Source: Flavobacteriaceae bacterium (lineage in GTDB: Bacteria > Bacteroidota > Bacteroidia > Flavobacteriales > Flavobacteriaceae). From it: 64,000 bases of DNA. Position 1 is the first letter of the stretch. Each line of letters starts with the position of its first letter. The position numbers and the translations under genes are program-made. Below, one piece after another: positions 11,486 through 37,370 of this stretch. The stretch spans positions 69,672 to 133,671 of the forward strand of contig CANGFO010000004.1 in assembly GCA_947453195.1 (NCBI GenBank). Direction: 5' to 3'. Below the pieces are notes generated by a model. The model was not told where the DNA came from and ran no database searches. It saw only the letters and a list, made by a program, of their open reading frames with translations.

Positions 11486-11669
11486 GCTATTAATTCAATA
11501 ATAGTATTATAACGAAAGTACTATTTACTTATGACATTCATGATAATTTTACATTTAGTGTAATAAAAAGTCATTATTTTTATATACTATATAATTTTAT
11601 TTTAAAAAAATTACACAATATTCTTTTTTAGATTTGCTAATTTAGTATATTTATGCAAAATTTATATAT

Positions 11670-12194: not shown

Positions 12195-13457
12195 ATGAAA
12201 AAAATTATTTTATTATCCTTTGCAGCTTTTTCTGCAATAGGTTACTCACAAACACCTGCTTCAGCTACTTCTGCTCCAGCAGCTAAAGAATGGGAGGTAA
12301 ATATGTACGGTTTCATTAGAACCGATTACATTTTTGATTCTAGAAAATCTGCTTCGGTAAGAGAAGATGAATTAAATCTTTATCCTTTAGATGTTGCTCC
12401 GGATAATAAAGGAAGTGATATCAATGCCGTTAATCAATCTAATTTCTTATCTGTTGTTTCTAGACTAGGAGTTAAGGCAAAAGGTCCAGATGTATGGGGT
12501 GCAAAAATGAATGGAACTTTAGAAGGTGACTTCTTTGGAAATACCGAATCCAGTCCTTCTTCAATAGGAATGTTTCGTTTGCGTCATGCTTTTGTAACAA
12601 TGGATTGGGCTAAGACTCAATTAACAATGGGGCAAACTTGGTACCCTACATTTATTCCTGAGGTTTTTCCCGGTGTTGCTAACTTCAATACTGGAATTAT
12701 GTTCAATCCTTTTGGATGGGCAACACAAGTTAAATTTAAACATAACTTATCTAAAGTAATATCTTTAGCAGTTACTGCCTATAAAGAAAGAGAGTTTGCA
12801 AACGCTATTGTTTCTCCTGGAACTCAAAATGCTGCTTCAATCAACTCGGCTTTACCTTCATTTAATTTATTATTCCAATTTAAAAACAACAATTGGATTG
12901 CAGGATTAGGAGCTGAATATAAATCACTACAACCACTTACAGATAATGGAGCAACAACAAAATTAGTTACTACTGAAAAAGTAAATAGTTCATCTGTTTT
13001 TGGATATGCTAAATATTCTAATGATAAATTTTCTGTAAAAGCTTATGCTATTTCAGGAGGGAACCTAAATAGCTTGGTGATGCTAGGAGGTTTTACAGGA
13101 ACTACAAATAACGGTATTCAATCATTTGATCCTACTAAAACAACTTCTTATTGGATTGATATTGCAAGTAATGGTAAAAAAGTGGCTCCTGGATTCTTCT
13201 TTGGATCAACTAAAAATAATGGAGCAAGTACTGCAGGAGCTATCTACATGCGTGGCTTAAGTGGACCTAGAGTAGTAGATAATGTTTGGAGAGCTTCAGG
13301 TAGAATTGATTTCAAACAAAACAAATTTAGAGTTTCTCCAGAAATAGAATATACTGCAGCTACATGGGGTGATGTAGATACTTTTGGAAAAGCTGGAGAT
13401 AACAAAACTACTGTTGGAAACATGAGAGTATTAGTTTCCTGCGTATATTCATTTTAA
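12195..13457 (+). CDS. DcaP-like outer-membrane porin
   Basis: Signal peptide, MYGFIRTDYIFD, SRLGVKA, LEGDFFG, FRLRHAF and terminal CVYSF. Confidence 0.8.
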   Translation: MKKIILLSFAAFSAIGYSQTPASATSAPAAKEWEVNMYGFIRTDYIFDSRKSASVREDELNLYPLDVAPDNKGSDINAVNQSNFLSVVSRLGVKAKGPDVWGAKMNGTLEGDFFGNTESSPSSIGMFRLRHAFVTMDWAKTQLTMGQTWYPTFIPEVFPGVANFNTGIMFNPFGWATQVKFKHNLSKVISLAVTAYKEREFANAIVSPGTQNAASINSALPSFNLLFQFKNNNWIAGLGAEYKSLQPLTDNGATTKLVTTEKVNSSSVFGYAKYSNDKFSVKAYAISGGNLNSLVMLGGFTGTTNNGIQSFDPTKTTSYWIDIASNGKKVAPGFFFGSTKNNGASTAGAIYMRGLSGPRVVDNVWRASGRIDFKQNKFRVSPEIEYTAATWGDVDTFGKAGDNKTTVGNMRVLVSCVYSF

Positions 13458-13489: not shown

Positions 13490-15286
13490 ATGAGTGATAA
13501 ATCAACAAAAGGAATTTGGAAAGTAATTTCGGCTTCCTCTTTAGGTACGATGATAGAATGGTATGATTTCTACATCTTTGGAAGTTTAGCAGTAGTTTTG
13601 TCTACTAAATTCTTTCCGTCAGACAATCCAACAGCCGCATTCTTATCTACATTAGCAACATTTGCTGCAGGTTTCGTGGTTCGTCCATTTGGTGCCTTAT
13701 TCTTTGGGCGTCTTGGAGATTTAATTGGAAGAAAATATACTTTCATGGTAACCTTAGTTTTAATGGGGGGAGCAACTTTTATGATTGGTTGTATTCCTAG
13801 TTATGAAACAATTGGTTTCATGGCACCTTTATTAGTATTGTTACTTCGTTTACTTCAAGGTTTAGCTCTTGGAGGAGAATATGGTGGAGCAGCAACTTAT
13901 GTAGCTGAGCACGCTCCTAGAGGACAAAGAGGTTATTGGACTTCATGGATTCAAACTACAGCAACTGTAGGTTTAATTATTTCTTTAATGGTAATTTTAA
14001 TTACTAAAGGAATATTATCTAAAGAAGAGTTTGATGCGTGGGGATGGAGAGTTCCATTCTGGGTATCTATCATCATGGTATTTGTTTCGTATTTGATTCG
14101 TAAAAACATGGATGAATCTCCAGTTTTTGCTAAAGCTAAAGCAGAAGGAAAAACGAGTGTAAATCCATTAAAAGAAAGTTTTGGACATAAATTAAATTTG
14201 AAATTTGTTCTTTTAGCTTTATTTGGAGCGACAATGGGACAAGGAGTTGTTTGGTATACTGGGCAATTTTATGCAATGAGTTTCATGAAAACAGTTCAAA
14301 GTATTGATTCTTCTCAAGTAGATACTTTATTAGGAATTGCTTTATTATTGGGTACACCATTCTTTGTATTCTTTGGATGGTTGAGTGATAAAATTGGTAG
14401 AAAAACTATTATGATGGCAGGTATGCTATTGGCTATACTTTTATATCGTCCTATTTACCGTCAGATGTATCATTTAACCGATGCAAAAGAAATGGTAAAA
14501 AATAACATTACCGTTGTAAAAGATAGTTGTAAAGCTATTGGATCATATGTAGCAACTGTTAAAACTGAGGCGGATAAAAAAGATCCATCTGTAAAAAACA
14601 CTAAAATCTTTATTGATTTCAAAACAGATACTTTATATTCTAATGGAGCTAAGTTTCACTTCACAAAAACGGATACTTTATACCTAGCTAAAGAATTAGC
14701 TTATGATGCTAAGGCAGCTGGTAAAAATGAAACGTGGATTAAATACAACTCAAAAGATAAAGCTGGGGTTGTTGTTCACAATGTTGTTAAAGTTAAAAAC
14801 GACTTGAAAGAGGATGAAAAACCAGTAAAAGTGGATACTCTTGCAGCTTTAGCATTGAAAACATTTACAAGTGGAGAAGCTAAAGATAAATCTCACATTG
14901 ATGGAATTAGTGTTAAGCCAAACGTAGCTGTAGTGAAAAATATTACAGACGATGTTAGATGGACTTTAATTTTCTTAATTTTTGTACAAGTAATTTTTGT
15001 AACTATGGTTTACGGGCCTATTGCTGCTTTCTTGGTGGAAATGTTCCCTGTAAAAATTAGATATACGTCGATGTCATTACCTTACCACGTTGGAAATGGC
15101 ATCTTTGGTGGATTATTACCTGCAATTTCAACTTACTTAGTTACAACTGCAAAAGGTACAGGTCCTAAACCATTAAATCCGGAGTTTTACTTAGAAGGAT
15201 TATGGTATCCAATTATCATTGCAGCGGTTTGTTTCGTAATCGGAATGATCTATATTGACAAAAAAATTAATACACTTCACGACTAA
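13490..15286 (+). CDS. MFS metabolite:H+ symporter (MHS family) with a large soluble insertion
   Basis: IEWYDF, FGRLGDLIGRK, GGEYGG, LSDKIGRK and EMFPVKIRYT; ~160 hydrophilic residues inserted in the C-terminal half. Confidence 0.92.
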   Translation: MSDKSTKGIWKVISASSLGTMIEWYDFYIFGSLAVVLSTKFFPSDNPTAAFLSTLATFAAGFVVRPFGALFFGRLGDLIGRKYTFMVTLVLMGGATFMIGCIPSYETIGFMAPLLVLLLRLLQGLALGGEYGGAATYVAEHAPRGQRGYWTSWIQTTATVGLIISLMVILITKGILSKEEFDAWGWRVPFWVSIIMVFVSYLIRKNMDESPVFAKAKAEGKTSVNPLKESFGHKLNLKFVLLALFGATMGQGVVWYTGQFYAMSFMKTVQSIDSSQVDTLLGIALLLGTPFFVFFGWLSDKIGRKTIMMAGMLLAILLYRPIYRQMYHLTDAKEMVKNNITVVKDSCKAIGSYVATVKTEADKKDPSVKNTKIFIDFKTDTLYSNGAKFHFTKTDTLYLAKELAYDAKAAGKNETWIKYNSKDKAGVVVHNVVKVKNDLKEDEKPVKVDTLAALALKTFTSGEAKDKSHIDGISVKPNVAVVKNITDDVRWTLIFLIFVQVIFVTMVYGPIAAFLVEMFPVKIRYTSMSLPYHVGNGIFGGLLPAISTYLVTTAKGTGPKPLNPEFYLEGLWYPIIIAAVCFVIGMIYIDKKINTLHD

Positions 15287-15298
15287 AACCTAGAAATT

Positions 15299-15517
15299 AT
15301 GATGAACGCAATAAAAAAATATATTGGAATAGTATGGATCGCTTTAGCAGCTATTGTCGCTTACTATTGCATCGGAATCTTTGGAGGAAAATTAACCTCT
15401 GGTAAACAAGATGATTTGGTTTTCGGAATTATTATCTTCTTTGTATTACTTCCTTTAGTGGTTACAGGACTTACTATTTTTGGTTGGTATGCTATGACCA
15501 ATGAATATGAAGATTAA
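15299..15517 (+). CDS. Small 2-TM membrane protein (DUF6814-like)
   Basis: 72 aa with two hydrophobic helices, directly after the MFS gene. Confidence 0.7.
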   Translation: MMNAIKKYIGIVWIALAAIVAYYCIGIFGGKLTSGKQDDLVFGIIIFFVLLPLVVTGLTIFGWYAMTNEYED

Positions 15518-15537
15518 TTAGTTACTATTTAACTTGT

Positions 15538-15570
15538 AAAAGCTCTTAGAAATAAGGGCTTTTGCTTTTT
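15538..15570 (+). terminator. Probable rho-independent terminator
   Basis: aaagctctta-gaaa-taagggcttt followed by a T-rich tail. Confidence 0.6.
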
Positions 15571-15641: not shown

Positions 15642-15836
15642 ATGAAAAAAAGACACCAACAAAAAATGCTTATCATATCCTATGTTTTATTCATGGGTTT
15701 TAACATGCCGTTGGTTTTACTTTTTGATTCCTCTGCATCAGCGTTTGGTATTCCATTTATTTACTTTTATTTTTTCACTCTTTGTTTGTTATCTATAGTA
15801 ATATCCTTAATAATTGTAAAACGATATAATGAATAG
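15642..15836 (+). CDS. Small 2-TM partner protein of the SSS-domain kinase
   Basis: 64 aa, two TM helices with FGIP loop; overlaps the kinase start by 8 nt, as small SSS accessory subunits often do. Confidence 0.7.
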   Translation: MKKRHQQKMLIISYVLFMGFNMPLVLLFDSSASAFGIPFIYFYFFTLCLLSIVISLIIVKRYNE

Positions 15837-18516
15837 CATAGTATTATTAGTTATACTTACTGGTTATTTGTCTGTATTATTTTTCATTGCTCATTGGGCA
15901 GAAAAAAATGAAAATAATAAATGGACCAATAATCCGTATGTTTATACTTTATCTCTAGCTGTATATTGTACCGCTTGGACCTATTATGGTAGTATTGGAG
16001 TAGCAGCCGATCATGGCTTAAGCTATTTACCAATATATTTAGGCCCCATAATTATTGCACCTTCGTGGATATTAATTTTGAAAAAAATCATAAGAATATC
16101 TCGAGTAAATAAAATATCTAGCATTGCCGATTTCATCTCTTTACGATACGGGAACAGTCGTTTTTTAGGTGCTATAGTTACAGTTATTTGCCTTGCAGGA
16201 ATATTGCCATACATAGCCTTGCAATTAAAAGCTATTGCAGAAACTTTTCACATTGTTACCAAAACAAAAGCTAGTTCTTTAATATTTAATGATACTACCA
16301 CATATGTTGCCATTGCGTTAGCTCTATTTGCATCTTATTACGGAACTAGATATGTAGACGCCTCCGAAAAAAGAAAAGGAATTGTAACAGCCGTTGCTAT
16401 TGAAAGCGTTTTAAAATTAGTTTTCTTTCTAATAATTGGAATTTATGTTACCTACTTTGTTTTTGATGGGTTTGAGGATATTTATCAAAAAGCATCCTTA
16501 TTAGAACATTTTAAAGAAAAAAATTCCATTGGTGGTCTGCCTCAAGCAATCAATTGGTTTTTACTTTGTATACTTTCCATGTTTGCTATCTTTTTACTAC
16601 CACGACAATTTCAAGTATCAGTAATTGAAAATAACAGAGAAAACCATATCAATACAGCGGTATGGTTGTTTCCTTTGTATTTATTACTGTTCAATATTTT
16701 TGTTTATCCAATAGCTTGGGGAGGAAATATATTATTTGAAGGACAACATGCCAATTCGGATACTTATTCGTTATTAATTCCGCAATTATTTAATCAAAAA
16801 CTACTTACAGTTATGGTTTTCTTTGGAGGATTTTCTGCAGCAATTTCAATGATAGTTGTATCTTCTATTGGTCTTTCTACTATGGTTACAAACAATATTT
16901 TAATTCCATATAATTTAATTGGAAAACTTAAAGGAACAGAAGATTCAATAAGTTCAAGAAAAATTCTAAATACTCGTAAAATGAGTATCTTTTTTCTAAT
17001 CATTTTATCCTACTTAATATATCAATTCTTTGGGCTAGATTATAGTTTAGTTTCTATAGGAATGGTTGCTTTTGTAATTATTGCCCAATTATCTCCTGCT
17101 TTTTTCGGTGCTTTATTTTGGAGAAGAGGATCAAGGCTTGGGGCGATTTCTAGTATTATTGTTGGATTTATTATTTGTGTTTATACGCTGCTTATTCCAT
17201 ATTCTATTGGCACAAGTAATAGTTCGAGTACTTTTATTACAAATGGTTTTATGGGAAATCATTTATTAAAACCATTCCAATTATTTGGATTGGATTATTT
17301 AGATCCAGTTCCGCACGCCTTATTTTGGAGTTTGCTTTTTAATTGGATTACTTATTTTGCTGTTTCAGTTAGTTTTAAAGGCAATTATAGAGAACGGAAT
17401 TACGCCGAAATGTTCGTAGATATAAGTAAATACATCACCAACCACGAGAATGTTTTTGTTTGGAAAGGAACAGCCTACCGAAATGATATCGAGAAAGTAT
17501 TGATACGTTTTCTTGGATTGGAACGAACTAAGCGGGCAATGAATATTTTCAATATTAAATACAACGTAGATAGCAATCAAGAATTAGCTGACGCACGATT
17601 AATTAAGTTTTCCGAAAATTTACTCACAGGTCACATAGGAACTGCCTCTGCAAGAATTTTAATTTCGAGTGTTGTCAAAGAAGAAAAAATTAGTTTGCCT
17701 GAGGTTTTAAAAATATTAGAAGAGTCTAAAGAAAATATTATCATCAACAAAAAACTTACAGAAACTTCTAATGAACTTAAGGAGATTACAGCTAAACTTC
17801 AAATAGCGAACCACTCACTAATTGAAAAAGACAAACAAAAAGATGAATTCCTTGATACCGTTACACATGAGCTAAGAACTCCAATAACTGCTATTAGGGC
17901 GGCTAGTGAAATATTACACGATGATGACGAAATTCCTGAAGAATTAAAAAAACAATTCCTGCAAAACATTATTTCCGAATCGGATCGTTTGAATAGACTG
18001 ATTGATAAAATCTTAGATTTAGAAAAATTTGAAACAGGAAAACAAACCATAAATCCTGAGGTGAATAATCTAGTTGCAACAATTGAAAATTGTATTGAAC
18101 CACTTACTCAATTGATAAAAAACAAAAATATTACCATTGAATTTGATACTAAAAATAGAATAGATGCGTATTATGATGAAGACCGTATAATTCAATTGGT
18201 TACCAATTTGCTTTCTAATGCCATTAAATTTTGTCCAGATAATAAAGGAGTAATATCCATTAACATTGAAACTAAAGGAAATGAAATTTTAACTTCGGTT
18301 ACAGATAATGGGAAAGGAATTAACACATCCGACTTTGAAGCTATATTCGAAAAATTCTATCAATCGAATAATCAAAATATTAAAAAACCTGAGGGTAGTG
18401 GTTTAGGATTAGCTATTTGCAAACAAATTATAGAACATCATAAAGGAACTATTTGGGTAGAACCAAGCGAAATAGGAGCCCAGCTAGTATTTACTTTACC
18501 AATAAAACCAGAATAA
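15829..18516 (+). CDS. SLC5 (Na+:solute symporter)-STAC-histidine kinase, CrbS/CbrA-like
   Basis: N-terminal SSS domain (LSLAVYCTAWTYYGSIG, SIADFISLRYG), STAC-like FSENLLTGHIGTASARIL, H-box THELRTP, and NLLSNAIKF, DNGKG, GSGLGLAIC. No PAS or receiver domain evident. Confidence 0.9.
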   Translation: MNSIVLLVILTGYLSVLFFIAHWAEKNENNKWTNNPYVYTLSLAVYCTAWTYYGSIGVAADHGLSYLPIYLGPIIIAPSWILILKKIIRISRVNKISSIADFISLRYGNSRFLGAIVTVICLAGILPYIALQLKAIAETFHIVTKTKASSLIFNDTTTYVAIALALFASYYGTRYVDASEKRKGIVTAVAIESVLKLVFFLIIGIYVTYFVFDGFEDIYQKASLLEHFKEKNSIGGLPQAINWFLLCILSMFAIFLLPRQFQVSVIENNRENHINTAVWLFPLYLLLFNIFVYPIAWGGNILFEGQHANSDTYSLLIPQLFNQKLLTVMVFFGGFSAAISMIVVSSIGLSTMVTNNILIPYNLIGKLKGTEDSISSRKILNTRKMSIFFLIILSYLIYQFFGLDYSLVSIGMVAFVIIAQLSPAFFGALFWRRGSRLGAISSIIVGFIICVYTLLIPYSIGTSNSSSTFITNGFMGNHLLKPFQLFGLDYLDPVPHALFWSLLFNWITYFAVSVSFKGNYRERNYAEMFVDISKYITNHENVFVWKGTAYRNDIEKVLIRFLGLERTKRAMNIFNIKYNVDSNQELADARLIKFSENLLTGHIGTASARILISSVVKEEKISLPEVLKILEESKENIIINKKLTETSNELKEITAKLQIANHSLIEKDKQKDEFLDTVTHELRTPITAIRAASEILHDDDEIPEELKKQFLQNIISESDRLNRLIDKILDLEKFETGKQTINPEVNNLVATIENCIEPLTQLIKNKNITIEFDTKNRIDAYYDEDRIIQLVTNLLSNAIKFCPDNKGVISINIETKGNEILTSVTDNGKGINTSDFEAIFEKFYQSNNQNIKKPEGSGLGLAICKQIIEHHKGTIWVEPSEIGAQLVFTLPIKPE

Positions 18517-18535
18517 AAAATTGAACCAAATCAAT

Positions 18536-18898
18536 ATGAAAAAGATACTAATCGTAGATGATGAGCCAAATATTGTAATGTCATTAGAATATACTTTCAA
18601 AAAAAATAATTTTGAAGTATATATTGCTCGCGACGGGCAAGAAGCATTAGATATTTTAAAAGCTAAGTTTCCTGATGTTATTATTTTGGATGTCATGATG
18701 CCAATGGTAGATGGGTATGCAACCTTAGAGCAAATTAAAAAAGACAGCAATTTAACCCATACTAAAGTCATTTTTCTTTCTGCAAAAAATAAAGAAAGTG
18801 ATATTGAAAAAGGGATGGCATTAGGTGCTAATGCCTATTTAACTAAGCCGTTTTCAATAAAAAAAGTAGTCGAAAAAGTACAAGAATTAGTAAGTTAG
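18536..18898 (+). CDS. Single-domain response regulator (receiver only)
   Basis: ILIVDDE, LDVMMP, FLSA, KPF. The ATG at 18536 is preferred to the TTG at 18521. Confidence 0.92.
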   Translation: MKKILIVDDEPNIVMSLEYTFKKNNFEVYIARDGQEALDILKAKFPDVIILDVMMPMVDGYATLEQIKKDSNLTHTKVIFLSAKNKESDIEKGMALGANAYLTKPFSIKKVVEKVQELVS

Positions 18899-19831
18899 CT
18901 AATTTAAATTCATTGTCGTTCCTGCTGGAATCACATATTTTTTATCAGCTACTTTTATGTAAATAGGTAAGGAACTTAAATTAGTTACTTTATTTTTTAT
19001 TGCAGAGAACTTCAAATTTTTATAGGCATTGATATAATCAACCAAATCAATTTGTTTGGCATAATATATTGTTAAATTACCTGCTAACATTTTAAAGAAT
19101 TTTTCAGTTTCATTCCACTTGATTTCATCGGTTCCCATTTCCCAACTATGTCCCCAAATATCTAATACTGCTAATTCCTTTGATTTCAAAAAGGATTCAA
19201 TTGTTTGATAAAATAAGGCAATTTCTTTTTGATCTTTTTCTGGTTGATTCGGCTCCCAATAGGCTTTTGCAAACTGATGGATTGTAGGATGCCATCTCAA
19301 AAAATCATTCGGAATTTCAAAATTATAGGTATCTCCAACAGTTCTTGCATATTCAATTCCTAGCCGTTTTATGATTTCAACTACGGTATCGTTAGTGTTT
19401 CCAAAAGGGTAGGCCATTCCTCGTATAGGGTATCCCATTATACGCTCTAACTCTTTTCGATCTTCAAAAATTTCATTCGCAACTTCTGATTTAGAAATAT
19501 CTGGTAAATTAGGATGATTGGCAGAATGAACGGATACTTCATGACCCTTGTAAAGCTCCTTTAACTCCTCTTTATTTAAATAATCATAATAGGAATTAGT
19601 ACTTAATTTATTTGAATTTAAATGAAACGTTCCAATGAGTTGGTATTTGTTCATCATTGCGACCAATTTTCTGTCATTTTTTGCTCCATCATCATAACTC
19701 AAAATTAGTGCTTTGGTTTTTCCCTCAGGGAAAAGCATTTCAATTTTTATGGATTTGTTAGTGTCAATGTTAACTTGTGCACAATTAGAGAATGTGGTAT
19801 GTAACACTAAAATAAATATATACTTTTTCAT
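18899..19831 (-). CDS. Polysaccharide deacetylase (CE4/NodB family), exported
   Basis: SYDDG, HSANH and RGMAYPFG; N-terminal signal-like segment. Confidence 0.85.
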   Translation of the reverse strand: MKKYIFILVLHTTFSNCAQVNIDTNKSIKIEMLFPEGKTKALILSYDDGAKNDRKLVAMMNKYQLIGTFHLNSNKLSTNSYYDYLNKEELKELYKGHEVSVHSANHPNLPDISKSEVANEIFEDRKELERIMGYPIRGMAYPFGNTNDTVVEIIKRLGIEYARTVGDTYNFEIPNDFLRWHPTIHQFAKAYWEPNQPEKDQKEIALFYQTIESFLKSKELAVLDIWGHSWEMGTDEIKWNETEKFFKMLAGNLTIYYAKQIDLVDYINAYKNLKFSAIKNKVTNLSSLPIYIKVADKKYVIPAGTTMNLN

Positions 19832-19906
19832 AGATCTAAATTCTAATGCAAATTAATGATAATTAAGATTCAAAAAAGTTAATAATGCAAATTTTTTAAA
19901 AAAATG

Positions 19907-19963
19907 TATATACCTATTTAGCAAAATTAATTCTACTCGTATTTCTTTATTATCTAAATTTAC
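19907..19963 (+). promoter_or_regulatory. Candidate operator box plus TAnnTTTA promoter element upstream of the prpE-like gene
   Basis: TATATACCTATTTAGCAA at 19907-19924 and TAAATTTAC at 19955-19963; the same architecture occurs upstream of acs. Confidence 0.5.
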
Positions 19964-23935: not shown

Positions 23936-23970
23936 AAAAAGCTGCTTCTTATGAAGTAGCTTTTTTTTTT
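23936..23970. terminator. Bidirectional rho-independent terminator
   Basis: aaaaagctgcttc-ttat-gaagtagctttttttttt between convergent genes. Confidence 0.85.
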
Positions 23971-23974
23971 ATAG

Positions 23975-24349
23975 TTAACTATTATCTTTTCGGATATAAA
24001 CTATGAAAGATATAGATAGAGCTAAATAGGGAAGTGTACTGCAAAATATCTTATAATTTTTGGAAAATATTCCGACTATAAAAAAGAAAAATACTAGTAA
24101 AAATAACAAAAACACACCTAATGTATTCGCTTTTTTATTGAATTTAGGATATAAAACACCAAGAATTAGTAGGATTTGAGCAATTAATCCAGCCAAAATA
24201 ACCGGATGCGTTAAATTATTAATTAGGCTCTCGGTTTTAGTCGCAATTTCTATTTCTCCTTGAAAAATAAACATGGAATTGTTTGGGGGCCACTCCAAGT
24301 AACAAAACTGAAAAGCTAGTAATAAAGTTAAATTTAATACTCTTCGCAT
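23975..24349 (-). CDS. Hypothetical membrane protein (about 4 TM)
   Basis: Hydrophobic 124-aa ORF abutting the exonuclease-like gene. Confidence 0.7.
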   Translation of the reverse strand: MRRVLNLTLLLAFQFCYLEWPPNNSMFIFQGEIEIATKTESLINNLTHPVILAGLIAQILLILGVLYPKFNKKANTLGVFLLFLLVFFFFIVGIFSKNYKIFCSTLPYLALSISFIVYIRKDNS

Positions 24350-24946
24350 TTACAAGATATTCAATCTAGATTTCAGTTTTAAAAACAATAACGCTAGGGT
24401 ATAAGCGTCATCGGTGGTAGAAATTCGTTCTGTTTTTGGGATTTTATATAAGGTTCCTAATTGTTCAATAGTAAAATTTGCATTGTTGATGTCGTTTAGT
24501 TTCTTGTGCATAATTTCGACATCCAAAGCTTCATTTTTTAATCTTCCGCAAGCCATTTTTTCAAGAACCTCATTAATCATTTCAACATCAAAATTAATGC
24601 GATGCCCAACCAAGGTTGAGTTTCCAATGTATTCAATGAGTTTTTCCATGGCTTGCCACTCTGACATTTTTGGTTGTTCAGACTCTAATAAGAAATCACT
24701 AGAAATACCATTATCGTGCAGGTATTTGTATTGCGGAATGGTAACTTCAAAAACATCTCCAATACGAATACTGTCTTCTATAATTGAAACTGCACCAAAC
24801 GATAATATAACGTCTTTTTTTGGATTTAACCCACTAGTTTCCGTGCATAAAACTACATATCGATTGGATTTGTGTTCGAATTTTGATAAGTAGGTCTTCC
24901 AGAATTCAGGAGAATTTTTATTTATATTTTTTAACCAATCAATCAT
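24350..24946 (-). CDS. DnaQ/PolC-like 3'-5' exonuclease family protein, catalytically degenerate
   Basis: ExoI reads VLCTETSG (Asp replaced by Cys), ExoII VGHRINFD is retained, and ExoIII reads RISTTDD (His absent). Confidence 0.8.
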   Translation of the reverse strand: MIDWLKNINKNSPEFWKTYLSKFEHKSNRYVVLCTETSGLNPKKDVILSFGAVSIIEDSIRIGDVFEVTIPQYKYLHDNGISSDFLLESEQPKMSEWQAMEKLIEYIGNSTLVGHRINFDVEMINEVLEKMACGRLKNEALDVEIMHKKLNDINNANFTIEQLGTLYKIPKTERISTTDDAYTLALLFLKLKSRLNIL

Positions 24947-24949
24947 AAC

Positions 24950-26863
24950 TTAAGAAAATTGCGTTAATTGAATTTTATCTTTAATCAACTCTTCAAGATC
25001 TTTCATTGGTGCTAAAGCATTTTTTAATTTCTCTTTGTCCACTTTATTCAGCTCATCTAAGTTGATAAATTGTCCAGTATCATCATTCTTTAAACCTTCT
25101 AAAGTTCTAAATTTAGATAAGACTAAAAATGCATCGGCACAATTTAAATAAATTTCAGAAAACTTAGGATCAACCATAGCTAACTGTTTAAATCTTAAGT
25201 AAGTGCTATTAACCCCTTTAATATTATTGCTTAAAATTAATAATCGAGCTCCATCTATTAAAGGCATTAATGCTTTAGTTTTGATGTCAAATTTGCCTTT
25301 ATGTTCCCCTTCTTCTTCAATATTGAACTTTTTAAAGAAGTTCAGTGGAGTAGGTTTTTTGATGGTATCGTTTCCTAAGTAATCTAAGAAAAGTACTTTA
25401 TTTTTTATGTTTGAAAAAATAATATCGGTTAGTGCGTCTTCAATTTTTTGTTCGCCAAAAGCCATTTCATAATCAAAGAATACGCTACTGATTTCATTAG
25501 TGCTTTCACCTGGAGTATTCATCCAATTCTCGTATTGTTTTACCCAGTCAGTCAATGACTTACACCACATCATATTGCTAGCCATATGGCCGTTAGGACA
25601 ATTTATATAACCTACTTTTTCAAGTGTTGCTGTGGCTTTTCGGGCTAATTTTAAAAAATAATCTTTTACATCTCTGTATTTTTCGGGAGTAACATCTTCA
25701 AAGACCAAAATACTATCTTGATCTGTTAATAATAACTGCTCTTTTCTACCTTGACTTCCAATGCTTAGCCAGGCAAAACGTGCAGGAGGAGAGCCTAATT
25801 CTAAAATAGCTTGCTCTACAGCGCGCTTAATAATGGCTAAAGTAATTTCTCCAACAATACTGCTAATATGAGTGAGCGGAATGTTTTTATTTAAAGAAGA
25901 TTGAATGATATCAGCCAATTTATTTCGAACTAATTTCAATTCTTTGGCGGTTTGAGATTTTTTTATCTCTTTTAAAAGAATTCCTGGATTATTAGCTTGA
26001 GCCACAACCAAATCATGTTCTGAAATTATACCTTTAACTTCCGATTTGTCCGTTCCGTCTTTAGTTACGCACAGGTGAGTAACCGCGTGTTTCAACATAA
26101 CCAACTGAGCTTCTGCAACTGAAATGTTTTCAGTAACCGTTATTACTGGAGAGGCCATGATTTTACTGATAGTATTCGTTAAAGGAAATCGGCCCGTAGC
26201 CACTTTAGACCTAAAATCTTTATCAGTAACAATGCCAATCGGGTTATTTTGATCAATAATTAAGGCGCTATCAAACATGTTTTCGGTAACCAACTGCGCA
26301 GCATCTTTAATTAAGGTATCGTGGCTAATTTTTAAAGGTGTTTTATTGTAGTTTAAAGACTGAAAGTATTGCATATCTGACTGATTATCAGTGTAGGATA
26401 CGTTATCAGATATCAAAGTATGATTTTTATTGTCTAAACTATTTTTTGTATTTACCGCAAAACTCTCCAGAAGAAAATCTAGAACCGGAGCATTTTGCGC
26501 CACAAATGGTTTAAAAGTAGCAATTGGAATAGCGTAAACAATACTTTCTTCACGGGCTTTTGCTGTCATTTGATAATTGTTCTTTGCGAAGAAAGGACGC
26601 AAACCAAAAATATCACCAGCATAACATTTATTTAATAAAGTTTCCTCAGCATCAGAAATAACAGTTAAATGAATAACTCCAGAGGCAACTACATAAAAAG
26701 AGTCGTGGAGCGAGTCATTTATCTGAAACAACGATTTATGTTTTTCTAAATTAATTACACGAATAGTTGATACAATCTTAAGTAAATCTTCGTAAGATAA
26801 ATAACTAAACGGTTCGTATTCTTTTAAAAAGTTTGCTATACGTTGGGAAATAGCATTTTCCAT
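24950..26863 (-). CDS. cNMP-binding + CBS + DUF294 (GlnD-like) nucleotidyltransferase
   Basis: cNMP domain GDIFG, CBS pair (GIVTDKD, GIISEHD), NTase motif GSQGRKEQLLLTDQD, and C-terminal FDIKTKALMP. Confidence 0.9.
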   Translation of the reverse strand: MENAISQRIANFLKEYEPFSYLSYEDLLKIVSTIRVINLEKHKSLFQINDSLHDSFYVVASGVIHLTVISDAEETLLNKCYAGDIFGLRPFFAKNNYQMTAKAREESIVYAIPIATFKPFVAQNAPVLDFLLESFAVNTKNSLDNKNHTLISDNVSYTDNQSDMQYFQSLNYNKTPLKISHDTLIKDAAQLVTENMFDSALIIDQNNPIGIVTDKDFRSKVATGRFPLTNTISKIMASPVITVTENISVAEAQLVMLKHAVTHLCVTKDGTDKSEVKGIISEHDLVVAQANNPGILLKEIKKSQTAKELKLVRNKLADIIQSSLNKNIPLTHISSIVGEITLAIIKRAVEQAILELGSPPARFAWLSIGSQGRKEQLLLTDQDSILVFEDVTPEKYRDVKDYFLKLARKATATLEKVGYINCPNGHMASNMMWCKSLTDWVKQYENWMNTPGESTNEISSVFFDYEMAFGEQKIEDALTDIIFSNIKNKVLFLDYLGNDTIKKPTPLNFFKKFNIEEEGEHKGKFDIKTKALMPLIDGARLLILSNNIKGVNSTYLRFKQLAMVDPKFSEIYLNCADAFLVLSKFRTLEGLKNDDTGQFINLDELNKVDKEKLKNALAPMKDLEELIKDKIQLTQFS

Positions 26864-33674: not shown

Positions 33675-35054
33675 TTATATGATTAATGTTACTTCTGTTC
33701 CTTGATTCTCTTCACTAGTTAAAACTAATTCTACGTTTAGTACATCACATAATCTTTTAGCAATTGAGAGTCCTAGTCCTATTCCATCTATTTCAGGGTG
33801 ATTCACTGTATAATTAGTTTTGTAAAATGCATTAAATACTTTTTCAACTTCCTCTTTTGCAATACCAATGCCATGGTCAATAATTTTTAATGAGGTATTA
33901 GAGTCTTTAGAATCTATAGTGATTGAAATTGTATCATTTAGTTTTGAATATTTTACAGCATTAGAAATTAGGTTGTTTATTACTATAGTTAGTAAATATT
34001 TATCCGTATTTACATAATTTGCTGGAATACTATCAAATGAAATTTTTACTTTTTGTTTTTGCAATTCTTCAGAAAAATGGTTTATAACTTCATTTACAAT
34101 TTCATTTAAATTTAGATTCTCAATTCTAAGAAATTGCTTTTGATTTTCTAATCGAGCTAAAATCAATAATTGATCCACTAATTTATTCATCCTATCAACT
34201 TCTGAAATGCATAAATTTATTTTTTGTTGGTATTCTTCCGTGTTTCTTGGTTTTCGTATTAATACTTCCAAAGTACCTTTAATAACTGCTAATGGAGTTC
34301 TTAACTCATGAGAAGCATCCGATGTAAACTGTTTTTCTCTTTCAATAGTATTGGCTATTCGATCTAATAAATTATTTATAGTGTTGGATAGTACAAATAA
34401 TTCATCTTTATATTTTGGAAGAGGTATTCTAGTTGCTATATTATTTTTGTTAATTGTTTCAGATATCGCAATGATTTTATTAATGGGCTTAATACTTTTT
34501 CCTGCAATAAATTGGGATACAAAAAACAAAGTAATTAAAACTAGTGGAAATAATACAAAAAGAATATTGATAAGACTATTTAATATATCTATTTCTTCTT
34601 TGGTAGATAAGGCAACCATTAAATATCCCTGAATTTTATTATGAAAAAATAAAGGAACTTGAATTTGTCGAATATCTTTACCTAAAACTACTAAATTAGT
34701 AATTTTCTGTATTTGAATATTTTTTTCAAATAACAAATTTTGAGATCTTAAATTTCTAGATTTCTGAATTACGTTCCCATTAATGTCTGTAACTTGTAAG
34801 AAAACAGGATCAATAAAAACTTCGTTGTGTTCTCTTTGCTCCCATTCCTCATGTTCATTAATTTCAAGTTCTTCTTCATTATAACTTAATTTTTGTTGAT
34901 ATTCTTCAACTTCTTTAACAAGTTGATCATTAATATTTTTATCAATGGATAGGGAAACAATATTATAAATAGAAAAAAATACTACAAAAATTAATATTGC
35001 AGCAGATATTATATAATAAAAGGAAATTCTGTTTTTAAGAGATAAATTAATCAT
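33675..35054 (-). CDS. Sensor histidine kinase (2 TM, HAMP, HisKA, HATPase)
   Basis: FTSDASHELRTPL, NLISNAVKYS, DHGIG and GIGLGLSI. Confidence 0.93.
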   Translation of the reverse strand: MINLSLKNRISFYYIISAAILIFVVFFSIYNIVSLSIDKNINDQLVKEVEEYQQKLSYNEEELEINEHEEWEQREHNEVFIDPVFLQVTDINGNVIQKSRNLRSQNLLFEKNIQIQKITNLVVLGKDIRQIQVPLFFHNKIQGYLMVALSTKEEIDILNSLINILFVLFPLVLITLFFVSQFIAGKSIKPINKIIAISETINKNNIATRIPLPKYKDELFVLSNTINNLLDRIANTIEREKQFTSDASHELRTPLAVIKGTLEVLIRKPRNTEEYQQKINLCISEVDRMNKLVDQLLILARLENQKQFLRIENLNLNEIVNEVINHFSEELQKQKVKISFDSIPANYVNTDKYLLTIVINNLISNAVKYSKLNDTISITIDSKDSNTSLKIIDHGIGIAKEEVEKVFNAFYKTNYTVNHPEIDGIGLGLSIAKRLCDVLNVELVLTSEENQGTEVTLII

Positions 35055-35056
35055 AT

Positions 35057-35725
35057 TTAATTGTCATTAGCAATATAACCAACTCCTCTAATTGTTTTTA
35101 CAATATCATTATCCTTATTGATATTTAGTTTTTTTCGAATGGAATTCATAAAAACATCAATTACTCCAGTATCATAGTCAAAATGAATATTCCATACATT
35201 TTCAATAATTTCAGATCGAGAACAAACTCTACCTTTATTATGAACTAAATATAGCAACAATTCAAACTCTCTTTGTGTAAGGGTTATAATAATACCATCA
35301 CTAGTTACAATATGTTTCTTAGTATTAATTATTATATTACCTAAAGATAATACTTCATTTAAAGTACTTTTTCTAAAATGGACTTTAATTCGCTCTAAAA
35401 GTTCTTCAAAGCTAAATGGCTTTTTAATATAATCATTTGCTCCAGCTTGAAATCCTTCAATTGTCTCTTGAATTGTATCTTTTGCAGTTAAAAACAATAT
35501 CGGAATTTGAGTATTTTTTTCTCTAATTTTTTTACAAACTTCAATTCCTGGTAATTTGGGTAACATCCAATCCAGTAAGATTAAATCTATCTTATGATTT
35601 AGTGCAAATTCTAGTCCTAACAACCCATTATTTGCAACTTCAATAGTATAACCCTCTTCTTCTAACCCTTGAGTTAAAAAATTTGAAATTCCTATTTCAT
35701 CTTCAATAATTAATATTTTTGCCAT
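35057..35725 (-). CDS. OmpR-family response regulator
   Basis: IEDE, LDWMLP, KPF; winged helix LTQREFELL..KTIRGVGY. Confidence 0.93.
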   Translation of the reverse strand: MAKILIIEDEIGISNFLTQGLEEEGYTIEVANNGLLGLEFALNHKIDLILLDWMLPKLPGIEVCKKIREKNTQIPILFLTAKDTIQETIEGFQAGANDYIKKPFSFEELLERIKVHFRKSTLNEVLSLGNIIINTKKHIVTSDGIIITLTQREFELLLYLVHNKGRVCSRSEIIENVWNIHFDYDTGVIDVFMNSIRKKLNINKDNDIVKTIRGVGYIANDN

Positions 35726-35728
35726 TAT

Positions 35729-37159
35729 TTACAACACAAATTTAAAGTTAAAGGTAATAATATTTGCATTTAAACCATCACTTCTTTGGTAATAATTATA
35801 GCGTAAATCAATATTTTTTAAACCAAATCCAAAGATTTTAAAATTGGTAAAAATATCTAGATAGGTTGCTCCCACCCCATATTGATTACTATTGAATTTA
35901 GACAAATCATAATCAGAAGTATAGAATGTTTCTGTAGATAAGTGCTGTTCAAAAGGTGCAAAATAGGTTGATGCATTTTGAATGTAATAGCGATACATTG
36001 GATACACAGTATATTTATCATTTATTTTAATTGGAAATTCAATATTTGCAGTATGTGCATTTATCCCCCAATCATCTGTATAAAAACGATAATACGTTCT
36101 AATTTTAAATTTTTCGTTTATGTAGTAATTTATTCGAATCCCTATAGGAAATTTTACTCGAGTGCTTGGTAATCGTTCAATGTCATCTGCCAATCGGTAT
36201 ACTCCAACATTATCAGAAGATTGATAATTTGATATATATTGCTTCTGACCAATATAATAATTTGGAACATCGGCAAAATACATTCGGTGATATGGAGTTG
36301 ACAATAACCCTTCTTGACGCAATAAATCAAAGAATATAGAGAATTGTAATATACGATTTACAATTTGAGAAAAACTAAATGAAACCGAATATGAATTTCT
36401 TTTTTCAATATCTAAAGTTTTAAATTTAACAGGCTTATATAAAATACTTCCTATGCCATTTTCATTTAAAATACTTACTCCAGATAAATATCCATTATAC
36501 TGAAATGTATTGCCATACTTAGCATATTCGTGTAATTCTGTAGGATATATTGGTCTCCATTTATCTAAATAAATATTAGTTTTTAAGCTAACCTCAGTAT
36601 TTTTTTTATTAAATAATTTGGTAATTCCTCCTCCAAAACCAAATGAAGTATAATCAAACTCATTGGATACAGAAACATCTGCATTCCAAATAAAGTTTCT
36701 GCTATCGCTACTGTGACTATAATTGCCACTAAGACTAATTAATTGGTCGGATGCCGATGCGCCAGATGAAGCTAACCAAGGAGTTCCAATGGGAGGCGAA
36801 TTGGTAGTGGTTGTATGACCAGATGCACCCGAACTTGTGCTGTTGCTAACAAAAGGATTAATATTACTAGATGAAGCAGATGTATATGCCGAAATCCCCG
36901 TATCAATTGTTAATATATCGTCCTCGTTCATTGGTACAGCAACGATAATATTGGTAGCAAAATCTGTTAGTTTTTCAGAGCCCATACCTCCTGAAACTGC
37001 CGAATGAATACCATCTTGCTTATAATAACTCATTAAAATATCAGCCTCGGTACTTTCTAATACTGCCTTTTTAAATTTAAATATTGTGTCTTTTGCTTTC
37101 TCTTGTGAAAATGAAAACAAAGTCAAAAATAGCATAGATAATAGTAAGAGATTTTTCAT
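35729..37159 (-). CDS. DUF3570-like outer-membrane beta-barrel protein
   Basis: Signal peptide from ATG 37159 (MKNLLLLSMLF); YYKQDG, SNEFDYTS, ERLPSTR, YRFYTDDWGI; two SGAS motifs. Confidence 0.8.
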   Translation of the reverse strand: MKNLLLLSMLFLTLFSFSQEKAKDTIFKFKKAVLESTEADILMSYYKQDGIHSAVSGGMGSEKLTDFATNIIVAVPMNEDDILTIDTGISAYTSASSSNINPFVSNSTSSGASGHTTTTNSPPIGTPWLASSGASASDQLISLSGNYSHSSDSRNFIWNADVSVSNEFDYTSFGFGGGITKLFNKKNTEVSLKTNIYLDKWRPIYPTELHEYAKYGNTFQYNGYLSGVSILNENGIGSILYKPVKFKTLDIEKRNSYSVSFSFSQIVNRILQFSIFFDLLRQEGLLSTPYHRMYFADVPNYYIGQKQYISNYQSSDNVGVYRLADDIERLPSTRVKFPIGIRINYYINEKFKIRTYYRFYTDDWGINAHTANIEFPIKINDKYTVYPMYRYYIQNASTYFAPFEQHLSTETFYTSDYDLSKFNSNQYGVGATYLDIFTNFKIFGFGLKNIDLRYNYYQRSDGLNANIITFNFKFVL

Positions 37160-37160
37160 A

Positions 37161-37370
37161 TTAATTACAACCACAGCCTCCTCCTGATTTTCCGCCATTA
37201 GCCCCTGCAGAAGCTTCTCTATAAACTTGAAAATTTACTTCATGTCGTTCTGATGTTCTAGCGCCCAGTTTCATTTCGGGATCATTAATTAATTCTTTTT
37301 CATACTCCTTTACACTTTCACAAGAAGTAAAATTTAAAACAATTATTAGTACTAAAAAACACTTATTCAT
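37161..37370 (-). CDS. DUF4266-like small lipoprotein
   Basis: Lipobox FTSC; C-terminal YREASAGANGGKSGGGCGCN. Confidence 0.85.
   Translation of the reverse strand: MNKCFLVLIIVLNFTSCESVKEYEKELINDPEMKLGARTSERHEVNFQVYREASAGANGGKSGGGCGCN

Follow-up and report, generated by a model that had tools for sequence, protein, structure and literature searches.

A transporter-like histidine kinase, a small membrane peptide and a lone receiver protein form one unit, with the receiver as the cognate partner of the kinase, in a 64-kb stretch of DNA from a Flavobacteriaceae bacterium (contig CANGFO010000004.1; the whole stretch is called the window below). This assignment is firm, and the pairing of an SLC5/STAC kinase with a lone receiver represents a distinct, widespread and ancient subfamily, not a Bacteroidota invention. 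Judging from its gene content, the surrounding locus is a conserved Bacteroidota system predicted to take up short-chain carboxylates of the acetate/propionate type and to activate them as acyl-CoA. As the conserved partner has no output domain, the route of the signal to its targets becomes a new question for a widespread sensor family. Our best explanation of the whole, to which we give a probability of about 0.4, is that the receiver would pass the signal to an InsA-like DNA-binding protein encoded at the same locus, and that this protein would act at a ~20-bp DNA box shared by its own promoter and two acyl-CoA synthetase genes. The positions of all these features are given in Table 1.

The window has a low GC content (~31%) and is of Flavobacterium origin, and a search of sequencing runs of any kind detected its DNA in metagenomes from freshwater and lakes, all runs returned being metagenomic DNA. 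Its kinase shares 92% identity with the one from a Flavobacterium metagenome-assembled genome; for another 79 species genomes of the Flavobacterium group, a few of them labelled Flavobacteriaceae or Bacteroidota only, the figure is 73-88%. The presence and order of genes were determined by tblastn of the window proteins against 80 related Flavobacterium loci (1.65 Mb). More distant relatives were collected by comparing the N-terminal 670 residues of the kinase with 1.84 billion cluster representatives, which returned 4157 relatives. The best 150 of these were used to tally architectures, and the genomic contexts of relatives with the same architecture and a kinase 37-45% identical (loci L081-L085 and L089-L092) were inspected.

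Pfam recognizes only the catalytic end of the kinase, with HisKA at residues 670-737 (E = 4.5e-19) and HATPase_c at residues 783-893 (E = 3.7e-27). No Pfam match to a PAS or REC domain was found along the protein, which ends at its ATPase domain, and no Pfam or NCBIfam model for SSF, STAC or PAS matched the N-terminus at E ≤ 10, Pfam SSF giving nothing over residues 1-670. Despite this silence, the N-terminus has the SLC5 fold, an assignment that rests on four observations. Residues 6-458 align to PDB entry 10ED_A with E = 4e-58 in a PDB sequence search, and 10ED is the cryo-EM structure of a Pseudomonas CbrX-CbrA SLC5-STAC construct (PMC13488458). The helices of an AlphaFold model built with 59 homologues (pLDDT 82.3) can be read as 13 transmembrane segments. 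Foldseek pairs this model with human SGLT2 and SGLT1 (E values of 8e-10 and 2e-9, TM-scores of 0.65-0.66), and the top 50 matches to the full-length model consist of kinase cores and these two SLC5 transporters. The CbrXA chain was not among the Foldseek matches listed, from a fold library that ends in April 2026 and may predate 10ED. Finally, K196, the Na2-site lysine of CbrA, is kept in the window kinase and nearly invariant in the family. While the region encoded at 15829-17838 of the window has no SSF match, relatives show only "faint" ones in precomputed annotations. Since Pfam SSF misses this subfamily, domain-based surveys will undercount such transceptors.

Between the transporter-like part and the catalytic core, the kinase likely carries a STAC domain, as judged from structural models. 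The modeled region contains helices 551-562/564-578 and 589-603/605-615, which make two hairpins joined by a 10-residue linker (579-588), and its turn reads FLGLERT, with RFLGxxxA as the family consensus, versus the LGPx(x)A hallmark. In its published description, STAC consists of four helices bundled as two hairpins, with nine residues linking them and LGPx(x)A as the turn (PMC4834066). When a model of this region only (pLDDT 83.5) was compared with 350,542 chains, the STAC crystal structure 5A1Q ranked third, with 67 alignment columns against a 68-residue chain and a TM-score of 0.55, a match that is not significant (E = 3.1). A profile of 48 homologues searched against PDB found neither 5A1Q nor 10ED, and the matches that it did return (HP0242 and Hsp70) were spurious. 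Downstream of this region, a single continuous helix (residues 623-698) enters the phospho-accepting helix with H680, leaving no space for a PAS domain. The columns of H680, N793, N797, G828, F843 and G856/G858/G860 are invariant across the 59 homologues. The kinase also carries the HisKA motif H-E-x-x-T, which is typical of bifunctional kinase/phosphatases.

The peptide gene ends inside the kinase gene, the ATG of the latter lying within an 8-nt overlap with the stop codon of the former (ATGAATAG). Its product has two hydrophobic segments with Kyte-Doolittle peaks at residues 10-28 and 40-58. It was found in 79 of the 80 Flavobacterium loci, at a constant offset of -187 where the kinase match begins at residue 1, and open reading frames (ORFs) of 63-78 codons occupy the same position in L083-L086, L089, L090 and L092. 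Such a coupled peptide has been described for CbrA only: in Pseudomonas, coupling to cbrA is known for CbrX (PMC6591292), which co-purifies in complex with the SLC5 domain of CbrA (PMC13488458). By its position, its coupling and its two helices, a likeness drawn independently of the CbrX sequence, the window peptide is an analogue of CbrX. In Hymenobacter weizhouensis, a 123-codon 23S_rRNA_IVP gene for a four-helix-bundle protein (L091:8588-8959) lies between the small ORF and the kinase gene and interrupts their usual start-stop overlap.

The receiver matches Response_reg with E = 1e-30 over residues 9-121 of its 125-aa listing, and it probably starts at the ATG at 18536 and not at the TTG at 18521. 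No output domain was found in it with Pfam or NCBIfam. Its phospho-acceptor D52 and residues D8, D9, S82 (the Ser/Thr position), K104, P105 and F106 are conserved in five distant orthologues. Like the small ORF, it is present in 79/80 Flavobacterium loci, always at the same place relative to the kinase, so that the placement of the two genes is not due to chance. Orthologues also lie directly 3' of the kinase gene in L081-L085 and L089-L092; at 37-53% identity to the window receiver, they are conserved as much as the kinase or more.

Among the best 150 of the 4157 relatives, the most frequent architecture was that of the window kinase, a protein of ~900 residues in which the N-terminal part is linked directly to a kinase core and no receiver follows (62/150). 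The others were kinases with inserted domains (45), proteins with no detectable kinase core, some with other output domains (32), and hybrid kinases with a receiver (11). At least 120 of the closest homologues listed are 886-909 residues long and have only HisKA and HATPase_c. We rejected the possibility that the window genes are a split or frameshifted hybrid kinase, given these lengths, the separate receiver genes of the closest homologues listed and the low count of hybrids. A receiver-only gene follows the kinase gene directly in every distant context with downstream DNA, and in most an ORF of 63-78 codons precedes the kinase. These contexts cover a broad range of base compositions: L081 (36% GC), L082 (44%), L089 (55%), L092 from Spirosoma sordidisoli (56%), L091 from H. 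weizhouensis (63%), L090 (66%), L083 (71%) and L084/L085 (72%). As a control, the hybrid PAS+REC relative P0164 adjoins a REC+GerE regulator of the LuxR type, as in CrbS/CrbR.

These results bear on the first-pass annotation of the window, which had been made from the sequence alone. Its anatomy stands: a gene for a protein with two transmembrane segments, an SLC5/STAC kinase without PAS or REC, the STAC part being likely, and a receiver-only protein. It had also noted the absence of a LuxR- or NtrC-type regulator from the locus, and indeed no regulator of the LuxR, NtrC or LytTR type was found in the 64 kb. Its picture of a stripped-down CrbS pathway proved wrong, as this architecture is the commonest among the closest relatives, lone receivers recur across lineages and it is the hybrid control that has the LuxR-type neighbor. 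The same applies to the idea of a distinct Bacteroidota wiring, since the pair of kinase and receiver-only protein occurs in lineages of 55-72% GC with receivers 37-53% identical. Orthology with CrbS did not find support either. Three defining features of CrbS/CrbR, namely the receiver fused to the kinase, the LuxR-type partner (within the 64 kb) and the ACTU motif at the acs promoter, are absent from the window.

Likenesses to several characterized systems remain. As in CrbS/CrbR (MxtR/ErdR) of Vibrio and Pseudomonas, an SLC5-like domain precedes a HisKA kinase, here with a likely STAC domain connecting the two, the genes are linked to acs, an acetate importer and a DUF294/RNase_T gene pair, and a conserved box lies 5' of acs. 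By synteny, the window system would be similar in purpose, that is, a carboxylate-linked transceptor kinase with acs. However, CrbS, a hybrid kinase, carries a receiver of its own and signals to a LuxR-type partner that binds the inverted repeat ACTU, whereas the window kinase has neither a fused receiver nor PAS, its partner is receiver-only, and the box CTATAYYWATTTAGCAA bears no relation to ACTU and lacks inverted-repeat symmetry. With CbrXA/CbrB the window shares the alignable N-terminal ~450 residues, the kept lysine, the coupled gene for a two-helix peptide and a STAC-like bundle. CbrA differs in having PAS, in its ligand, which is histidine, and in signaling to the NtrC-type CbrB; in similarity scores, CbrA reaches 200 bits against the window kinase versus 476 bits for the CrbS-like hybrid P0164. 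RpuS/RpuR of Sinorhizobium (pyruvate) and PrlS/PrlR of Brucella are likewise SLC5/STAC kinases for carboxylate use, with a direct-repeat box 5' of a transporter operon, but their partners are DNA-binding regulators and they belong to Alphaproteobacteria. The window receiver itself resembles CheY, DivK, CpdR and Spo0F, with all catalytic residues and no output domain. To our knowledge, none of these four has an SLC5/STAC kinase or a DNA-binding protein derived from a transposase as its partner, and no Hpt protein that would support a relay of the Spo0F type was found at the window locus. Our literature search found no description of this kinase subfamily, of a lone receiver linked to acs or of a domesticated InsA regulator of acs.

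The first-pass annotation had further linked the kinase to acetate genes, which the neighborhood bears out: a prpE-like ligase gene and acs follow the receiver gene in 77/80 and 78/80 loci, and acs does so also in L081, L082 and L089-L092. The gene order in Flavobacterium is fixed, running InsA-like (75/80), channel-like protein (36/80), MFS importer (58/80), DUF6814 (59/80), peptide, kinase, receiver, prpE-like and acs, and it is kept in L081 and, in another class, in Spirosoma and Hymenobacter. The prpE-like protein scores 740 bits against the PrpE model, below the cut-off of 955, and 665 bits against the acetate-CoA ligase subfamily, above the cut-off of 657. The 420-aa protein encoded after the InsA-like gene has no Pfam or NCBIfam match but looks like an outer-membrane channel, for which a porin role may be suggested; proteins of 422-547 residues without annotation fill its position in L082, L090, L091 and L092. 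The MFS protein and DUF6814 are likely a carboxylate importer. Terminator-like hairpins lie 3' of the DUF6814 gene and of acs. Together with the layout of the genes, they suggest that the putative transcription units of the window are InsA-like (perhaps through the importer genes), peptide-kinase-receiver, prpE-like and acs. A scan for sigma-70-type promoters did no better than shuffled sequences, as expected for Bacteroidota.

The importer slot 5' of the kinase varies: it holds MFS+DUF6814 in Flavobacterium, Spirosoma and L081, and DUF4212+SSF in L082 and L090; L083 has an ActP-type pair, DUF485+SSF, 3' of an exonuclease gene instead. As a transporter appears each time with a small membrane partner, this suggests non-homologous replacement of the acetate importer. 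The same neighborhood raises the question of whether the target of the phosphorylated receiver is the membrane machinery (the SLC5 part of the kinase, MFS/DUF6814 or the channel), a feedback that would tune uptake and not transcription. The kinase is itself a transporter-like transceptor, importer genes are always adjacent, and STAC has been proposed to regulate solute flow (PMC9100948). We nevertheless consider such feedback very improbable: we found no precedent for it in the SLC5/STAC kinase family, the importer type changes with the lineage while the receiver stays conserved, and the DNA boxes described below would be left unaccounted for.

The InsA-like protein has the zinc-ribbon cysteines C6, C9, C28 and C31 as well as a helix-turn-helix (HTH), which matches Pfam HTH_23 at 25.2 bits (cut-off 24.6). 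It scores 38.6 bits (cut-off 28) against the NCBIfam IS1/IS1595 zinc domain NF050000 and 78.9 bits, below the cut-off of 100, against the IS1 transposase model, of which it covers profile positions 1-120 only. At its fixed place in the Flavobacterium loci it is 77-97% identical, more conserved than the kinase; the identity is 64% in L081 and 58% in Spirosoma and Hymenobacter. L090 has an InsA-like fragment in divergent orientation at the edge of the contig, which suggests that the linkage survived a rearrangement. Around the window gene, neither flanking insertion sequence (IS)-type or terminal repeats nor a DDE ORF was found. That the gene is an IS relic was rejected on these grounds and on its fixed synteny in 75/80 loci and in Cytophagales. 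Public databases name this single-copy gene variously transposase, IS1 family transposase, terminase gpP N-terminus-related DNA-binding protein, HTH protein or DNA invertase Pin-like recombinase; it is systematically mis-annotated across Flavobacterium genomes.

In IS1, InsA is a protein with a zinc finger and an HTH that binds DNA and represses its own promoter, which overlaps its binding site (PMC12428005). The window protein is like it in its zinc ribbon and HTH, its size class (~100-140 residues) and its predicted sites over its own promoter. It is unlike it in lacking an InsB/DDE frame and terminal inverted repeats, in keeping a fixed synteny across two Bacteroidota classes, in its extra 50-aa C-terminal tail and in having predicted sites before metabolic genes too. 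Taken together, it is likely a domesticated IS1-type DNA-binding module without the transposase part and a candidate regulator of the locus.

Comparison of upstream regions revealed a box of ~20 bp (CTATAYYWATTTAGCAA; consensus RnCTATAYYWATTTAGCAAKA) at the InsA-like promoter and 5' of both acyl-CoA synthetase genes. On both strands of the window, only two matches reached 18 bits or more, those starting at 19906 and 21900. Over the 80 loci, 100 matches reached this score, 48 at acs, 40 at the prpE-like gene and 12, in reverse, at the InsA-like promoter; none fell outside these three promoter places in the 1.65 Mb. At 12 bits or more, the InsA-like promoter box was present in 47/73 loci, always on the minus strand at -39 from the ATG, and shuffled controls reached this threshold in 0.3% of cases. 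In the window, the reverse copy there overlaps a -7 box of the TAnnTTTG type, the Bacteroidota-type -7 consensus. Across 73 species, the final ~50 nt ahead of the InsA-like ATG hardly vary, and the 28 nt immediately before it (11642-11669, GTATATTTATGCAAAATTTATATAT) are almost 100% identical, far above the coding sequence, which suggests a second operator copy or a control at the level of the leader.

Matrix scans showed no box 5' of the channel, MFS and DUF294 operons. None was found either 5' of the peptide/kinase operon, including in species with a fused operon, except in L015, where a box of 13.4 bits (ACCTATATCAAATTAGCAATTT) lies ~91 nt 5' of the small ORF. This is the only locus with a box before the peptide-kinase operon. 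Given its spacer of 32 nt from the receiver gene to the prpE-like gene, the box may have relocated to the promoter from which the synthetase gene is transcribed. A weak box-like match in the window at 16015-16036 (+; 14.2 bits, GGCTTAAGCTATTTACCAATAT) lies inside the coding region of the kinase and is probably due to chance. Direct reading of the regions 5' of prpE-like and acs showed no ACTU-like inverted repeat. Beyond Flavobacterium, the Spirosoma locus has exactly two matches of at least 8 bits in 20.7 kb of 56% GC, a forward one at -87 of acs and a reverse one before the InsA-like gene. The reverse box at the InsA-like promoter is retained in L081 and Hymenobacter, and L090 has an AT-rich island with a box-related sequence in its divergent spacer.

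The only invariant site of the box is thus the promoter of the InsA-like gene itself, and the box was seen only in lineages with this gene. On these grounds the InsA-like protein probably binds the box. The two tandem copies over its own promoter imply autoregulation, possibly autorepression as with IS1 InsA, and the single copies ~45-60 nt 5' of the -7 elements of prpE-like and acs imply activation. In the model that we propose, the CbrX-like peptide and the SLC5/STAC kinase would be the membrane sensor, with acetate or propionate as the putative ligand. The STAC bundle and the one long helix would provide a direct coupling between the state of the transporter-like domain and the phospho-accepting helix. 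The receiver is the sole local and cognate partner of the kinase; once phosphorylated, it would contact the InsA-like protein and switch or strengthen its activity. This last step, suggested by the proximity of the genes and by the lack of any other visible output, is the most tentative of the scheme and seems to us possible, with the odds somewhat against it.

Several observations weigh against this scheme. In the window, the box at the InsA-like promoter (AAATATACTAAATTAGCAA) is a degenerate variant with two substitutions that scores 3.0 bits; the matrix, seeded on ATTTAGCA, undercounts variants. About every second Flavobacterium locus has its receiver, prpE-like and acs genes spaced 20-40 nt apart with no internal box, and the box is then found at the InsA-like promoter only. 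F. aciduliphilum (L017) has both boxes and no InsA-like gene within 10 kb upstream. L082 keeps the kinase and the receiver although an ArsR-type HTH protein replaces the InsA-like protein, so the local DNA-binding protein may be an independent input. Finally, the alpha4-beta5-alpha5 face of the receiver is well conserved in GC-rich relatives without an InsA-like gene in the sampled contexts, which favors a partner common to all lineages.

The first-pass annotation had suggested the InsA-like HTH protein and the DUF294 enzyme as targets of the receiver. Both are serious candidates, the former as a fixed member of the locus with a box at its promoter and the latter through an operon shared with the kinase in GC-rich relatives. 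In L083, the genes for DUF294, peptide, kinase, receiver, exonuclease and ActP form one operon with overlapping start and stop codons, and a similar operon in L084/L085 lacks the genes for DUF294 and ActP. There, the receiver stop codon is overlapped by a gene (L083:7365-9500, L084:5969-8155) for an exonuclease fusion of 711-728 residues, in which L083 shows HAMP, PAS, a strong RNase_T match and weak matches of the HisKA-like and HATPase-like kind, and L084 shows PAS and RNase_T only. This pseudo-kinase-exonuclease fusion could be the ancestral target of the receiver.

The receiver might act on DUF294 and the DEDDh exonuclease and so control acetate use at a nucleotide-based or post-transcriptional step, the InsA-like protein being separate and having its own signal. 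The fusion would offer a plausible docking surface in GC-rich relatives, the conserved output face of the receiver extends across the lineages with the exonuclease operon, and both L082 and the window have a DUF294 gene next to the locus. The pair also belongs to the CrbS/R (MxtR/ErdR) regulon of Pseudomonas, where the homologues pp_0354/pp_0353 and pflu5625 are targets of CrbR/ErdR. However, only 21-24/80 Flavobacterium loci have the DUF294/exonuclease operon no farther than 10 kb from the kinase, its exonuclease there is a 198-aa protein without a kinase-like module, and deletion of pp_0354 or pp_0353 caused no acetate growth defect in P. putida (PMC9927547). We regard this alternative, the main rival of the scheme proposed above, as unlikely.

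Less probable still, though not negligible, is that the receiver is a phosphate sink or shuttle, with the signal going from the kinase, directly or by relay, to a distant DNA-binding regulator that binds the boxes, and with the InsA-like gene as a mere target. Branched pathways in which single-domain receivers serve as sinks or relays are well known (Spo0F, CheY-type sinks). The characterized SLC5/STAC kinases all signal to DNA-binding regulators (CrbR, CbrB and RpuR), the hybrid PAS+REC relative has its LuxR-type neighbor, and the visible part of the genome is 64 kb only. On the other hand, no Hpt protein and no second regulator were seen in the ~90 loci inspected, and near the window locus there is no DNA-binding response regulator, nor any REC+GerE protein in the 64 kb. 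The one invariant box position is at the promoter of a gene for a DNA-binding protein, as is usual under autoregulation, and in the single sampled locus with another HTH protein, L082, no CTATAYYWATTTAGCAA box was found. In L082, the ArsR-type gene (2028-2318, 96 aa) lies 5' of the transporter genes, in the place of the InsA-like gene, with the DUF294 gene divergent beside it.

If the InsA-like protein is indeed the effector of the receiver, the output of this two-component system would be split over two genes, its DNA-binding half recruited from a transposon. A broader idea, which we hold to be rather unlikely, is that the receiver is a detachable regulatory subunit of a domesticated InsA-type protein and that the family of SLC5/STAC kinases with lone receivers uses non-canonical effectors; these would be the InsA-like protein in Bacteroidota, and pseudo-kinase-exonuclease fusions and DUF294 elsewhere. 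The known SLC5/STAC transceptor kinases come from only a few proteobacterial systems, each ending in an ordinary DNA-binding regulator. The subfamily defined here, with 62 of the 150 closest cluster representatives, is large and extends over Flavobacteriia, Cytophagia and several GC-rich lineages. For Bacteroidota, the 139-aa protein, the 20-bp box at three promoters and the kinase-receiver pair make a test set, and the InsA-like assignment corrects a widespread annotation of the transposase type. The use of acetate and propionate by freshwater and soil Bacteroidota matters for carbon turnover, and the locus could serve as a sensor part for short-chain fatty acids.

Table 1 Features of the locus, with positions in the window
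Feature	Position	Strand	Remarks
InsA-like promoter/operator	11629..11669	-	TAnnTTTG-type -7 box TAGATTTG at 11629-11636
Reverse box copy at InsA-like promoter	11631-11652	-	overlaps the -7 box
Second, weaker box copy	11648-11669	-	~19 nt downstream of the first copy
InsA-like protein, 139 aa	11670..12089	+	CxxC...CxxC zinc ribbon, HTH at residues 51-84, 50-aa C-terminal tail
420-aa protein	12195..13457	+	signal peptide and aromatic C-terminus (translation)
MFS metabolite/H+ symporter (598 aa) and DUF6814 (72 aa)	13490..15517	+	family matches; terminator 15536-15565
Two-helix membrane peptide, 64 aa	15642-15836	+	translationally coupled to the kinase
Sensor histidine kinase, 895 aa	15829-18516	+	SLC5-like ~1-515, linker, STAC-like ~551-615 (likely), helix 623-698, ATPase 783-893
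Stand-alone receiver, 120 aa	18536-18898	+	ATG start; listed ORF 125 aa from TTG 18521
Box GTATATACCTATTTAGCAAAAT	19906..19927	+	26.0 bits; ~95 nt 5' of the prpE-like ATG
Propionate/acetate-CoA ligase paralogue (prpE-like), 631 aa	20001..21896	+	ligase-model scores
Box ATATATATTTATTTAGCAAGAA	21900..21921	+	28.9 bits; ~100 nt 5' of the acs ATG, ~45 nt 5' of the -7-like element TATATTTA
Acetyl-CoA synthetase (acs), 635 aa	22003..23910	+	TIGR02188 953 bits (cut-off 725); terminator 23936-23965
DUF294 (cNMP-binding/CBS) nucleotidyltransferase (637 aa), RNase_T-type DEDDh exonuclease (198 aa) and 124-aa membrane protein	23975..26863	-	convergent operon

Two further features of the window should be mentioned. 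A gene for a polysaccharide deacetylase of 310 residues (18899-19831, minus strand) lies between the receiver and prpE-like genes, its stop codon abutting that of the receiver. Among the 80 loci, it was found at this position only in the window and in its closest relative, L001, and L003 has a weaker match ~11.6 kb from the start of the kinase gene; this restricted distribution points to a recent insertion, which moved the receiver ~1.1 kb from the prpE-like gene. The only other receiver and kinase in the window are an OmpR-type regulator of 222 residues and its HAMP kinase of 459 residues, encoded at 33675-37198 on the minus strand, 16 kb away and beside a DUF3570 protein; this pair is probably unrelated to the locus.

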